Positions 824 through 23,150 of a stretch of 26,602 nt of DNA are shown here, in pieces. Under the pieces are notes generated by a model. That model made no database searches. It saw nothing but the letters and a program-made list of their open reading frames with translations, and was not told the origin of the DNA. Made by a program: the position numbers and the translations under genes. Positions within the stretch are counted from its first letter, which is position 1; each line of letters starts with the position of its first letter. The DNA is from a virus (Duplodnaviria > Caudoviricetes). The stretch is taken from positions 1 through 26,602 of the IMG/VR virus record IMGVR_UViG_3300021373_000811. One strand, given 5' to 3'.

Positions 824-1797
824 TATGCTACCTCTAACTCTATTTCCTCCCAGCCGAAATCGTCACCTTCCATACCTACGACTGAGTATTCGGTCACACG
901 CTTCTCAAAGAAGTTATCATGTGACGCTCCGTTTAGGACCCAATCCAACCAAGGGAGTGGATTGTCCTTTTGATTGAACAATGGTTTCAGTCCAAGTTGA
1001 AGTAGGCGTCGGTCCGCAATGTGACGGATGTATGCACGTACTTCTTTCTTGGTGAGCCCCTGTACATCGTTTCCTCTAAATGCGAGGTCGATGAACTTGT
1101 CCTCTAAACTAACTGCGTTTTCCGCCATGTTATATATCTTTGACTTTAGCTCGTCATTTACCACACGAGGGTGTTCCTCGCAGAACGTGCGGAACAACTT
1201 TGCGTTACCCTGCACGTGGATGGTCTCATCACGGATGGACCATTCGACGATGGTTGCCATACCCTTCATTTTTCCGAATCGTTGGAAGTTCAGGAGCATG
1301 ACGAACGACGCGAATACCGACATACCTTCGTTGAACACTGACTGCGCAAGCGCGAGTGCAAGACCTGTATGAGAGGTGACATTTCCCTCTTTCATAAAAT
1401 CGATCTTGTCAGCCATCGCCTTGTAGTCAAGGAACTTGTGGAAGTCTTCGTCCGGTAGACCAAGTGTGTCGTTCAGTAAGGCATATGCACGTTGGTGCAC
1501 TGCCTCTCGTGCCGCAAATGATGACAACATGTTGCGGACTTCGTTATTTTTAAAACGTGGTATAAGTAGTTCGTGATAGTTCTCACCTACCTGCACGTCA
1601 GACTGAGTGAACAGACGCAGAACATGAGTGATAAACTCCTTCTCTGATTCTGTCAACTTAGTTTTCCAATCTTGCACGTCTTCGGATAACTCCGCTTCAT
1701 CTTCAATCCAGTGAATCTCTTCGTGTTTCTTCGCAAGGTCCACTGCCCATGGATAAAGAAAAGGTTTGTATGTTTTTGAAAAGTTAAGTAATGACAT
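823..1797 (-). CDS. nrdB: Class Ia ribonucleotide reductase beta subunit
   Basis: Di-iron ligands and radical Tyr visible: FTQSDV, REAVHQRAY, FNEGM, RDETIH; C-terminal NFFEKRVTEY. Confidence 0.96.
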   Translation of the reverse strand: MSLLNFSKTYKPFLYPWAVDLAKKHEEIHWIEDEAELSEDVQDWKTKLTESEKEFITHVLRLFTQSDVQVGENYHELLIPRFKNNEVRNMLSSFAAREAVHQRAYALLNDTLGLPDEDFHKFLDYKAMADKIDFMKEGNVTSHTGLALALAQSVFNEGMSVFASFVMLLNFQRFGKMKGMATIVEWSIRDETIHVQGNAKLFRTFCEEHPRVVNDELKSKIYNMAENAVSLEDKFIDLAFRGNDVQGLTKKEVRAYIRHIADRRLLQLGLKPLFNQKDNPLPWLDWVLNGASHDNFFEKRVTEYSVVGMEGDDFGWEEIELEVA

Positions 1798-20501: not shown

Positions 20502-21171
20502 GGGCGTTATGAGAGTTTTCTTCGTTGTACTGCGCAATTGTCTCACGTAGTGGACGTACCCAATTGTCACGATGTTCAATGAAGATTTGTGGTTCGTGGT
20601 TGTCAACCGAAATGATTGTAACCAGTTGAGTGATTGGTTGACCCGTACGTTCTTCCCACATGATTGCGTAGGCGGACTCTTGCATGAAATAATTCTTAAT
20701 CCAATCGAGCCGTTTAGGTTTCATGGAAGTCTTGAAATCAATGATAGAAGGACGACCATCGAACTCAGCAACGCAATCGACGCGACCAGCCACTCCCAAG
20801 TGGTTTGAGTAGAGAGGGGCCTCCTGTGCATATACTCGACCGATACGGCTATCCAAAATGGGCTTAAGATCAATAAAGCTACTAATAATGTCTGGAGTGT
20901 ATCCATCTTTGAAGTTCTCTTCATTGTTGATGTACTTCTCAACGATGGCGTGTACTGCGGTTCCCCGTGTTGATGCACGGTGAGAAATACGGTTCGCTTC
21001 TTCGTGTCCTACGCGGGCCCGCCACTTGGCGATAGACTCTCGCGATAGGATAGAAAGTACAGTAGTAATAGAAGGAAGGTTGATACCTTCCGGTGTTTTG
21101 TACTCACGGCGACCGTTATGGTTCTCCGTTTTCATTTCCGTCAACTCGACGGGGACATGTTCAAATATCAT
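20491..21171 (-). CDS. PD-(D/E)XK exonuclease (lambda-exo/RecB/Cas4-like phage family)
   Basis: PSITTVL, RGTAVH, QEAPLYS, AGRVDCVA, IIDFKTS, QESAYA. Confidence 0.88.
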   Translation of the reverse strand: MIFEHVPVELTEMKTENHNGRREYKTPEGINLPSITTVLSILSRESIAKWRARVGHEEANRISHRASTRGTAVHAIVEKYINNEENFKDGYTPDIISSFIDLKPILDSRIGRVYAQEAPLYSNHLGVAGRVDCVAEFDGRPSIIDFKTSMKPKRLDWIKNYFMQESAYAIMWEERTGQPITQLVTIISVDNHEPQIFIEHRDNWVRPLRETIAQYNEENSHNALDI

Positions 21172-21311
21172 TACAAATCGTCTAAATCAATTACAGGGTT
21201 AATATTCTCAAGTGCCTTCAGTTCATGTCGAACAATCACCCAAAGGAAAACCCAAGAAACCGAAGTGAGTATACCCACTGCGGCAAAAAAGTATAATAGG
21301 AATTCTACCAT
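21171..21311 (-). CDS. Small single-pass membrane protein (46 aa)
   Basis: Not in ORF track. MVEFLLYFFAAVGILTSVSWVFLWVIVRHELKALENINPVIDLDDL; TAATG coupling to the exonuclease gene. Confidence 0.6.
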   Translation of the reverse strand: MVEFLLYFFAAVGILTSVSWVFLWVIVRHELKALENINPVIDLDDL

Positions 21312-21330
21312 AATATTTCTCACTTGTCAA
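21302..21330 (-). promoter_or_regulatory. Near-consensus sigma70-type promoter
   Basis: TTGACA (21330-21325), 17-nt spacer ending TGG, TAGAAT (21307-21302). Confidence 0.75.
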
Positions 21331-21343
21331 TAGCAAAACAAAA

Positions 21344-21533
21344 GATTCCTCATGGATGCGGGGCCCGAAGGGTACTGTTATGTTTACTAGACTCTATAAC
21401 TTGTCGTGACTTTCTGTCACTCACCGTCCGCGGCATAAGGTGGACATGCGCGTAGTTGAGAGATTCTACGGTTTACAAATTATCGCGTTTGCGTCGTCTT
21501 AGTAGTACCGGCCCCGCATCCCATGAGGAAATC
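21344..21533 (-). ncRNA. 190-nt structured non-coding RNA of unknown family
   Basis: 22-bp closing stem with two 1-nt bulges, three further nested helices and a three-hairpin apical junction. Begins 7 nt after the tRNA-Ala CCA and is followed by TTTTGTTTTG. Confidence 0.82.
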
Positions 21534-21540
21534 GTTAAAA

Positions 21541-21616
21541 TGGTGGAGCGAGAGGGAATCGAACCCACGACCTTCTGGATGCAAACCAGACGCTCTCCCT
21601 ACTGAGCTACCGCCCC
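21541..21616 (-). tRNA. tRNA-Ala(UGC)
   Basis: 76-nt cloverleaf, anticodon arm TCTGG-TTTGCAT-CCAGA, G3:U70, encoded CCA. Confidence 0.96.
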
Positions 21617-21624
21617 ATTAAACC

Positions 21625-21632
21625 TATTTATA
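21625..21632 (-). promoter_or_regulatory. T4-type late promoter TATAAATA upstream of tRNA-Ala and the ncRNA
   Basis: Exact consensus in the spacer between tRNA-Gly and tRNA-Ala. Confidence 0.75.
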
Positions 21633-21726: not shown

Positions 21727-23127
21727 TTAATCACATCCAAGTTCTTGACGTGACACCTCATCATTATTGATGGGACAGTTGCCACTGGGTAGAGACTCAG
21801 GGACATATCGCATCAAGTTAGGGTCACGCAAACTGTTCTCAAGAAACAATACTAGGCTTGCGATTTCGTCTTCGGTCAAGTCAAGAGGGGTAAATCGGTA
21901 ATCTACTTGATGTAAGTCTACGTCTGGATGCTGAGGTACCGCATCAACTTTGTAACGAACTACATCTTCTAGTGAACTAAACGATGCACCATGACCAAAC
22001 ACTTCTGTATCTATAAGATTGTAAAGTGGCGGTACTTTGAACTTGTACTTATCCATGTCATCGCCCGTGAATCCACCACGACCTTCACGTGTCGCATCGT
22101 TGACCTCACCAATTGTATCTTCCCAGATATCAAGGTCATGGAATCCAACCGTCATAAACACATCATCCGCAAGAGCACCTGTAGGTGAAGATAGTGCGGG
22201 CCCAGTGTGGCACGAGTTACAGTTACCCTTACCAAAGAACACCTTTGCACCTTCAATCTCTTCGATTGTCATCGCGTCGTCGTTACCTCGCAAGAAATCT
22301 TGGAATGGTGCCTCGTTTGCAAGAACAGTGCGTTCGTACGCGGCAATTGCGAGTGCGGCTGCTTCCAACATGTCGTCTGGTTCTGCGACACCATACGCGT
22401 CCTCAAACATCTGTCGATACGTCTCGTTGGTGCGTAGTAGTGAGTCTGGACTATTCGTTCCCATACGGTGCACACCAAGACCTGCGACTGCCTGCGTCTC
22501 TAGTCCGGACAGGTTACGTAGGTTTGCTTCCTTCGGTGTACCTTCTGTGAAGTGACGGTCGGGGTCGATACCAATGTTCACAATACCACCCACTTCATTA
22601 CCGAACTGACCATTCCAAAGCATCACTTCTTGGAATGCGGTATTCAGTACTGTAGGGGATGTTACTGGTTGTACATCAACGTCTGCAAGGTCTACACCTT
22701 CCATGACCATGCGATGGTCAAATCCAATACCACCCTCACCGATACCCTGACGGATACCAGACTTGAATCCATTCTGTGCATTGTGACAAGATGCACACGA
22801 GAACGTACCTTCACTGGAAGAGAGTTCACCTTCGGTGATACCAGTCTCGTGATAGATTAACTTACCCAGTGCGACCTTCTCTGCGGTAATAGGATTACTT
22901 GGGTCTTGGGGGATGTTATCGAAGTCATCACTATCGGGTAGGATGAAGTCTTCGGGCGTACCCATCAACTCAAACAATTCGTCCTTTGCGACCGTCTTGG
23001 GGTCAGGCGCTGGTGTGGTTACAGGTGTAGACGTAACGGGTTCCACGGGTACAGGTGATTCCGCCCCTCCCCCGCTACATGCGGAAATAACTAGAGTAGA
23101 TGCTAGTGTCATCGTCAACTTGTTCAT
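21727..23127 (-). CDS. Di-haem cytochrome c peroxidase/MauG-superfamily lipoprotein
   Basis: Lipobox ISA-C; NPITAEKVALGKLIY; two haem c motifs CASCH and CNSCH; LWNG; FKVPPLYNL. Confidence 0.9.
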   Translation of the reverse strand: MNKLTMTLASTLVISACSGGGAESPVPVEPVTSTPVTTPAPDPKTVAKDELFELMGTPEDFILPDSDDFDNIPQDPSNPITAEKVALGKLIYHETGITEGELSSSEGTFSCASCHNAQNGFKSGIRQGIGEGGIGFDHRMVMEGVDLADVDVQPVTSPTVLNTAFQEVMLWNGQFGNEVGGIVNIGIDPDRHFTEGTPKEANLRNLSGLETQAVAGLGVHRMGTNSPDSLLRTNETYRQMFEDAYGVAEPDDMLEAAALAIAAYERTVLANEAPFQDFLRGNDDAMTIEEIEGAKVFFGKGNCNSCHTGPALSSPTGALADDVFMTVGFHDLDIWEDTIGEVNDATREGRGGFTGDDMDKYKFKVPPLYNLIDTEVFGHGASFSSLEDVVRYKVDAVPQHPDVDLHQVDYRFTPLDLTEDEIASLVLFLENSLRDPNLMRYVPESLPSGNCPINNDEVSRQELGCD

Positions 23128-23150
23128 AATATACTCTCAACTGTGTGTAT

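Follow-up and report, generated by a model that had tools for sequence, protein, structure and literature searches.

Introduction

Stable RNAs encoded alongside the clustered tRNAs of T4-type phages have been on record for decades with no function assigned; a 2010 review gives the roles of T4 RNA C and RNA D as unknown and states that no small trans-acting regulatory RNA of T4 had a characterized function at that time (PMC3014915). The same review describes the T4 RegB nuclease, which inactivates early mRNAs at their GGAG ribosome-binding sites (PMC3014915). A rod-shaped RNA of bacteria, 6S RNA, binds the sigma70 holoenzyme and templates pRNA (PMC9670815, PMC8876501).

The window, by which we mean the entire stretch of 26,602 nucleotides that was analysed, is a 26.6-kb IMG/VR phage fragment that is 17% complete. 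It encodes the T4-like ribonucleotide reductase, a phrog_298 exonuclease and a cytidyltransferase, together with six tRNAs; genes for gp32, gp45, RegA, UvsX and baseplate proteins are found in a relative that is 93% complete. A first-pass annotation of this DNA had proposed a late-promoter, tRNA-linked structured RNA placed like T4 RNA C and RNA D, a description that is borne out by its position, its late box and covariation among relatives.

An RNA gene downstream of tRNA-Ala

The fold of the window copy and a covariance model, R2, place a non-coding RNA gene of 190 nt at 21344..21533 on the minus strand, on which all window features below also lie. Model R2 was built without the window subtype and matches the copy with 59.5 bits (E 1.5e-13). 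The 5′ end of the RNA lies 7 nt past the encoded CCA, ending at 21541, of tRNA-Ala(UGC) (21541..21616), and a T4-type late promoter box, TATAAATA (21625..21632), is located 8 nt upstream of this tRNA. Late boxes of this type occur at 4 sites in the window versus 0.85 expected, all 4 on the coding strand, and 28 of 31 family members have a TATAAAT(A/C) box no more than 260 nt upstream of the RNA. Past the closing stem, a U-rich tail (21335..21343) likely marks the 3′ end; standard-terminator scoring of this tail called no terminator. The spacing from the CCA, the promoter upstream of the tRNA and the U-rich tract had each been noted in the first-pass annotation and are seen in the sequence. A sigma70-type promoter of the downstream exonuclease unit (21302..21330; 11/12 match) separates the RNA from the next gene, with such a site at most 140 nt downstream of the RNA in 30 of 31 members.

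A 46-codon hydrophobic open reading frame (window 21171-21311, minus strand) begins within this sigma70 promoter. Its GTGAGA leader sits in the promoter spacer, so the frame could be translated only from read-through of the late tRNA and RNA unit; a similar reading frame follows the RNA in L003-type phages.

Distribution of the RNA family

From marine T4-like phages we collected 31 distinct sequences of 150–195 nt (152–197 nt as cut), the window copy among them, each following immediately after a tRNA, which is tRNA-Ala or, in one type, tRNA-Asp. Identity to the window copy is 44–65%, with one exception at 98%, and each of the 31 members folds at z-scores of −3.3 to −9.4 (40 shuffles each). 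When loci were anchored on the exonuclease gene, the element was found in 33 of the best 80 of 596. Within the same best 80 of 596, all 32 loci with a tRNA at most 800 nt upstream of the exonuclease carry the core motif; as these loci came from synteny alone, the invariance of the motif is no artefact of motif searching. Viral contigs scanned for the motif yielded 81 loci. Among the 80 that were tallied, 50 have a tRNA, nearly always Ala, less than 130 nt upstream; the remainder comprise one locus with a damaged tRNA (L136) and 29 that score as chance. Scanning 10 of 64 parts of a metagenome collection added 6 of 117 loci, all 6 behind tRNA-Ala.

Model R2 recovered the element in 7 of 8 records known to carry it, missing the divergent L055 type, and detected it in none of 28 records whose exonuclease has none nearby, one complete genome included. 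The 80 loci from a second exonuclease query included no new member, a GCGT-variant pattern gave 58 loci with a single real one that was already known, and blastn of the element against 50,697 GenBank phage records gave no match. Cellular homologues were rejected: only 1 of 26 pattern matches in genome collections was real, and it lay on a phage contig; across 101 Porticoccaceae genomes model R2 found nothing beyond the copy on that phage contig. Taken together, we consider it nearly certain that 21344-21533 (minus strand) belongs to a genuine family of structured RNA genes.

Three core-motif loci were rejected as members. A GC-rich, probably betaproteobacterial metagenome contig (L181:292-475, plus strand) presents the core motif within an end-paired rod with side hairpins; its core scores only 15.7 bits, and there is neither an R2 match nor a tRNA. 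Similar intergenic segments with the core motif occur twice in one Paraburkholderia MAG (L297, about 1400-1640, minus strand; L302, about 1370-1640, plus strand), without R2 matches; in L297, a Betaproteobacteria-1 RNA (RF02932) lies just upstream of the segment.

Among the members themselves, the L055 type, which follows tRNA-Asp rather than tRNA-Ala, carries a tandem duplication of the start of the 5′ arm (L055:3760-3795). An insertion between the RNA and the exonuclease gene is present at L042:3532-3907, in L316 and L317, and at about 35800-36180 of G001:C1. First in it comes a piece of the exonuclease gene from its 5′ end, then a sigma70-type promoter driving a terminated small RNA of ~100 nt that itself contains GTGAGAG, and last a second copy of the RNA 3′ half that begins exactly at the invariant GTGCATG. 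The insertion, which has no significant Rfam match, resembles a recombination or integration scar at the core.

The genomic distribution bears on the possibility that the element is a cis-acting 3′-end module of the late tRNA transcript, serving termination, processing or stability and insulating the exonuclease unit, with no function in trans. The five large RNA-bearing records possess 8–12 tRNAs and a peroxidase gene, and the four RNA-less records 0–3 tRNAs and no peroxidase gene, so that the element accompanies a tRNA cluster in 5/5 records and is found in 0/4 with at most three tRNAs. It is always last in the tRNA unit, it ends in a G-rich strand and U tract, and the sigma70-type promoter follows it in 30 of 31 members. 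However, a multi-helix fold of 150–195 nt with an invariant apical strand far from its ends exceeds what termination needs, and there is no standard-terminator score; we regard this explanation as improbable.

Structure and covariation

The window copy (21344-21533, minus strand) folds with an energy of −75.8 kcal/mol (z −6.9), which 0 of 200 shuffles matched. The opposite strand folds about equally well (z −5.1), and the strand assignment is therefore decided by the tRNA and promoter context and by G-U type changes in the alignment. Much of the fold first proposed for this RNA is present in the sequence: the 22-bp closing stem with two single-base bulges (21533-21510 with 21365-21344), the GGTACT/AGTACC, ACTA-A-GAC/GTCTAGT and ATAATTTGT/ACAAGTTAT helices, and the GTGAC-AGAAA-GTCAC hairpin. 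The statement that almost the whole interval is paired was too generous, as we count 64 pairs, or about two thirds of the bases, and a CGC-AAAC-GCG hairpin (21493-21484; pair probability 0.94–0.98) had been overlooked. The three-hairpin apex held only in part. Its GTGAC-AGAAA-GTCAC hairpin stands, while CGTAG/CTACG and GTCC/GGAC, with a probability of about 0.54 in the window, are found in none of the relatives. These two are mutually exclusive with the conserved ACCGT/ACGGT helix and GCAT/ATGC hairpin, for which the window pair probability is 0.36–0.46; the GCAT/ATGC hairpin is 98.7% paired in 19 relatives. By these predictions, the window apex is a pair of near-equal folds, and the one conserved in the relatives is not the one first described.

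To the question of covariation raised by the first-pass annotation, a 46-pair structure gives a positive answer. When 19 members are aligned on sequence alone, 92% of cells are paired and 23 of 46 pairs are changed on both sides, compared with 30–49% paired and 1–9 double-change pairs for slid controls; the structure was hand-drawn from the same alignment, which favours it over these controls, and the shuffle control ignores kinship. The alignment omits the 12 most divergent members, the window type included, which MAFFT misaligned. RNAalifold on a 27-row MAFFT alignment returned a poor, partial consensus, and model R1 inherited an incomplete structure. A further alignment, A3 (94.7% paired, 35 of 46 pairs with double change), was set aside as it was model-fitted and 3 of its 32 rows were reverse-strand self matches.

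The outer part of the consensus consists of P1, a 3′ bulge, P2, a one-sided A/C-rich loop, and P3 with a bulged A. The 5′ strand of the closing stem P1 (21510..21533) pairs with 21365-21344, and 13 of 18 pairs are changed on both sides in relatives. The 5′ strands of P2 and P3 (21496..21509) have their partners at 21376-21371 and 21392-21386, respectively, and the pairing is conserved: in the 19-member alignment, P2 is 100% paired with double changes in 3 of 5 pairs, and P3 96% paired with double changes in 2 of 4. Between the 3′ strands of P2 and P3, the one-sided loop (21385-21377) measures 0 nt by 9 nt in the window. The bulged A in P3, read from the sequences, is conserved. At the base of P1, the outermost pairs are TTCCCC/GGGGAT in all members (e.g. 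L009:3801-3963) and resemble a common intrinsic-terminator stem; they presumably also recall the stem of type I-E CRISPR repeats.

The inner part comprises an optional P4, P5, an optional P6 and the apex. P4 is the CGC-AAAC-GCG side hairpin (21484..21493), which some members lack; in the 98% identical copy (L299) its loop is altered and its stem kept. The 5′ strands of P5a and P5b (21468..21483; partners 21404-21396 and 21427-21423) are supported by the window fold and by the relatives. P6 is the GTGAC-AGAAA-GTCAC side hairpin (21406..21420), with a different stem sequence in other members. At the conserved apex, a strand of 14–16 nt with AUCUCUCA, predicted to be single-stranded, is located beside a GCAU/AUGC hairpin of variable loop. 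The window version of this strand, AGAAUCUCUCAACUAC (21452..21467, predicted single-stranded), contains the invariant UCUCUC(A) at 21463-21457, our proposed antisense seed. The adjoining hairpin P7, G-Y-GCAU / AUGC-C (21430..21451), is near-invariant, with a loop that varies in length and sequence; at the pair flanking the bulged C of P7, the window type has C-G where most members have U-A. The mean unpaired probability of the apical seed strand is at least 0.69 in 27 of 31 members, and opening 6 nt of the seed is predicted to cost 0.33 kcal/mol.

The proposed apical seed and early leaders

We compared the seed to the leaders of predicted phage messages, with early-type leaders defined as those of sigma70-type promoters and with promoter classes and starts called by simple patterns. 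Across five RNA-bearing genomes, 18 of 111 early-type leaders contain the seed complement TGAGAG, compared with 0 of 82 late-type ones (Fisher p 2.7e-5). The word ranks 1 of 4096 hexamers in early leaders; TGAGAGA ranks 3 of 16384. At a cut-off of −8 kcal/mol, a duplex with the loop is predicted for 28 of 114 early leaders, compared with 8 of 82 late ones. In four of five genomes (G001, G002, G007 and G037), the real loop outperformed shuffled loops, with 1–12 of 300 shuffles as good; the test failed in G006, the closest relative of the window, with 1 of 12 early leaders and 270 of 300 shuffles as good. Genome-wide, matching to the loop fails in G002, with the expected base at 1 of 9 sites, and is equivocal in G008, with 2 of 5.

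Four RNA-less relatives carry TGAGAG in 11 of 71 early and 0 of 57 late leaders (rank 3 of 4096), so the leaders do not need the RNA. A T precedes TGAGAG in 19 of 33 cases in RNA-bearing genomes with an A in the loop versus 7 of 25 in RNA-less genomes (p 0.034; the genomes are non-independent). The early-leader signature TGAGAGAG ... ATTATG is clade-wide (G001, G002, G037, G030, G029, G012), and leaders of this type pair poorly with the canonical anti-Shine-Dalgarno sequence.

Other partners for the seed were considered and rejected. The seed is not a copy of the host anti-Shine-Dalgarno, as 8 of 8 tails from the likely host family are canonical; the 3′ end of the RNA itself gave high pairing scores in 19 rows, yet it is sequestered in P1; the AGAG in P3 was dismissed as a partner, since the length of that pairing is not conserved; and mimicry of an anticodon loop (CUCUCAA) was dismissed because no flanking stem is conserved.

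From these observations we favour, at slightly short of even confidence, a reading in which the seed acts as an antisense strand on the UGAGAG ribosome-binding regions of early mRNAs and likely lowers their translation. Three further points stand against it: i) the 18 of 111 early-type leaders with TGAGAG are a small share, ii) the seed, a CU repeat, is of low complexity, and ribosome-binding sites are rich in purines in any case, and iii) neither the invariant GCAU/AUGCC nor the bulged A nor the conservation of lengths is accounted for by seed pairing. The invariant hairpin suggests an additional protein partner. In the extreme, the apex, that is the UCUCUCA strand and the GCAU/AUGCC hairpin, would act solely as a ligand or decoy for a host or phage RNA-binding protein or a defence nuclease, with the early-leader match due to chance or secondary. 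The clustering of invariant bases in one internal loop and an adjoining 4-bp hairpin, fixed in sequence and not merely in pairing, fits such a role, as do the conserved bulged A in P3 and the occurrence of the same leaders in RNA-less relatives. No protein partner emerged, however: a TROVE gene was found in 0/5 genomes, and RtcB, Hfq/LSm, CsrA and reverse transcriptase were absent at E 1e-7 among 110 ORFs scanned in G007. As a decoy alone would also leave it unexplained why the seed complements the top-ranked early-leader hexamer, we judge this account unlikely, if worth serious attention.

The cytochrome c peroxidase leader

Under the antisense reading, the best predicted target in the window is the leader of a di-haem cytochrome c peroxidase gene (PF03150; 21727-23127, minus strand, start at 23127), a probable auxiliary redox gene, in which AGTTGAGAG (23134..23142) is a 9-bp complement of 21462-21454. 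This leader ranks first of 35 window leaders at −13.2 kcal/mol, or about −9.0 after opening costs of about 4 kcal/mol, and the site ties as the longest complement of the loop on the coding strand of the whole window. The peroxidase gene is present in 5 of 5 large RNA-bearing records and 0 of 4 RNA-less ones. Among auxiliary genes, G007 (L394-L401) carries an alternative oxidase, isocitrate lyase, a redoxin, a carbamoyltransferase, a radical SAM protein and a DruA-like protein.

Of 31 distinct pairs of peroxidase leader and loop, 25 contain TGAGAG; this set excludes three further loci whose contigs end before or inside the RNA. Cognate pairs match over 7.2 nt versus 6.9 nt for permuted pairs (p 0.011, not corrected for kinship). 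Matching changes of loop and leader are seen in three lineages, CAACU/AGTTG in the window, CAC/GTG in L330 and L328, and CAU/ATG in G002; in L330 the match is perfect over 11 bp. Six peroxidase leaders alter the base facing loop position +1 with the loop unaltered, and a loop change in L319 is uncompensated. We thus see weak signs, in sequence comparisons, of co-change between loop and target.

Most peroxidase leaders can form weak AGAG/CTCT hairpins, with the TGAGAG word in the loop of many. This raises the possibility of a positive or host-directed seed, which would open or stabilise UGAGAG leaders or target host mRNAs; the poor pairing of peroxidase leaders with the anti-Shine-Dalgarno of the likely host family, canonical at 8 of 8 loci, points the same way. 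But a late RNA would be badly timed to help early genes, and host leaders seldom contain TGAGAG (2 of 161 and 2 of 125, by crude start calls), making such a role very unlikely.

Host and expression

The copy with ~98% identity over the element resides on a 93-kb phage contig of a Porticoccaceae MAG. This T4-like contig (G006:C1, with L299 and L389-L393), 87–98% identical to the window, is the largest of a GTDB MAG that serves as a species representative, and it represents an infecting or mis-binned phage. Among the 120 matches listed, the only named cellular homologues of the peroxidase are from Porticoccaceae (52–55%). The contig and these homologues together hint that the host is probably a SAR92-like member of the Porticoccaceae.

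An RNA library (X2) holds a 163-nt assembled contig identical to 21350-21512, which cannot show ends, strand or level. A 180-nt assembled contig covers 21391-21569 in X24, a library of unspecified kind, and in X12 a relative's 706-nt contig spans tRNA-Gly, tRNA-Ala and the start of the RNA. Assembled pieces of X1 cover most of the region, none over the element, and those of X2 include none over the exonuclease gene; such gaps prove nothing.

Proposed mechanism and significance

From the flanking signals, we infer a discrete RNA likely transcribed from the late promoter, late in infection, with its 5′ end likely freed by 3′ processing of tRNA-Ala. Both ends would be shielded by the long covarying rod, at whose tip a 14–16 nt strand would be kept open; there the invariant AUCUCUCA, predicted to be exposed, could base-pair with UGAGAG ribosome-binding regions of predicted early messages. 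Pairing would then damp translation of these messages late in infection, repression being the presumed sign. Candidate targets are several sigma70-driven and tRNA-cluster genes, among which the neighbouring cytochrome c peroxidase is the best candidate in the window. The fuller proposal, that a tRNA-processed late RNA is a global antisense off-switch, reading a UGAGAG leader code instead of RegB and co-evolving with the peroxidase leader, is offered more tentatively. A search for RegB detected it in 1 of 1 T4 controls and in 0 of 5 phage records, which include the RNA-less G030.

If true, this model would add an RNA-based layer to early-to-late switching of lytic phages and, in phages probably infecting SAR92 bacteria, tie the switch to the regulation of an auxiliary redox gene. 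It would also provide, for the first time, a mechanism for a stable RNA of the T4 RNA C/D kind from a tRNA cluster; the peroxidase gene would be host-derived in this scenario. With a structure backed by covariation, an invariant seed and candidate targets that can be named, the family reduces the question to a direct compensatory-mutation experiment, feasible without a cultured host.

Comparison with known RNAs

The first-pass annotation had not recognised the family, and searches with Rfam 15, at gathering and E-value thresholds, likewise returned nothing over the element in the window, in L042 or in L181, L297, L299 and L302. We found no description of the family in the literature. The motif and contig ids are absent from four supplement files of the Fremin catalogue of IMG/VR candidates (PMC10690425); a fragment may be listed elsewhere in that supplement, probably among its alignments. 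The RNA is thus uncatalogued in Rfam, and undescribed in the literature as covered here. A permuted two-piece tmRNA (RF04321) was rejected, scoring only 18.8 bits (cut-off 47) over the 3′ end of tRNA-Ala in L299; ARAGORN found no tmRNA, and the GGGGCC stretch is not conserved.

An early suggestion was a 6S-like promoter mimic that binds sigma70 RNA polymerase and stops early transcription. The element shares with 6S RNA (RF00013) its length and the overall form of an end-paired rod, late expression would fit, and a TGAA(C/T)...(G/T)TTCA helix ~40 nt from the 5′ end in 14 of 31 members recalls the helix beside the bubble of Porticoccaceae 6S. RF00013, however, matches neither the element, at E values up to 10, nor any of five relatives, in a search that finds Porticoccaceae 6S at 85 bits; model R2 in turn misses Porticoccaceae 6S, and CCTGAG/CTTGAAC motifs are absent from all 31 members. 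In place of a two-sided bubble, the family has a one-sided internal loop, a branched apex and an invariant strand, and a GC-rich hairpin occupies the would-be template strand. Sequestering holoenzyme would moreover be expected to take core enzyme from T4-type late transcription. A polymerase decoy is accordingly most unlikely; the idea that the RNA aids the early-to-late switch may still be right in outcome, with the evidence favouring base pairing to early leaders over polymerase binding.

Bacterial Y RNAs, including YrlA, possess a tRNA-like domain with a T-loop. The comparison once drawn with them does not hold: the T-loop motif GTTC(A/G)A occurs in 0 of 31 members, there is no Y RNA or YrlA match in Rfam, and no TROVE (Ro60) gene was found in five phage records that are 56–93% complete, with a control search positive in 2 of 14 genomes.

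By position, the nearest counterparts are T4 RNA D (species 2, rnaD, 119 nt) and RNA C (species 1, rnaC, 139 nt), which likewise lie behind the last tRNA of a T4-type cluster. They differ in fold and size, and rnaC ends in a T-arm-like hairpin that the window family lacks; neither nhmmer (no match at E 10) nor model R2 detected homology to rnaC or rnaD. Theta ribozymes are also structured RNAs beside phage tRNA genes, but are described as minimal HDV-like ribozymes (PMC10879173), whereas this family forms a nested rod of 150–195 nt with no Rfam ribozyme match. In function, T4 RegB would be the closest analogue, as it too inactivates early mRNAs at a ribosome-binding motif; RegB, however, is an early-made protein nuclease that cuts GGAG. 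Bacterial trans-acting small RNAs with pyrimidine-rich seeds of anti-Shine-Dalgarno type form an existing class, and the family resembles them in its short single-stranded C/U-rich seed, complementary to many mRNA ribosome-binding regions. Unlike in that class, the seed here is carried in a long end-paired rod that is phage-encoded and probably cut from a tRNA precursor, and it matches the phage-specific UGAGAG leader word rather than GGAGG.
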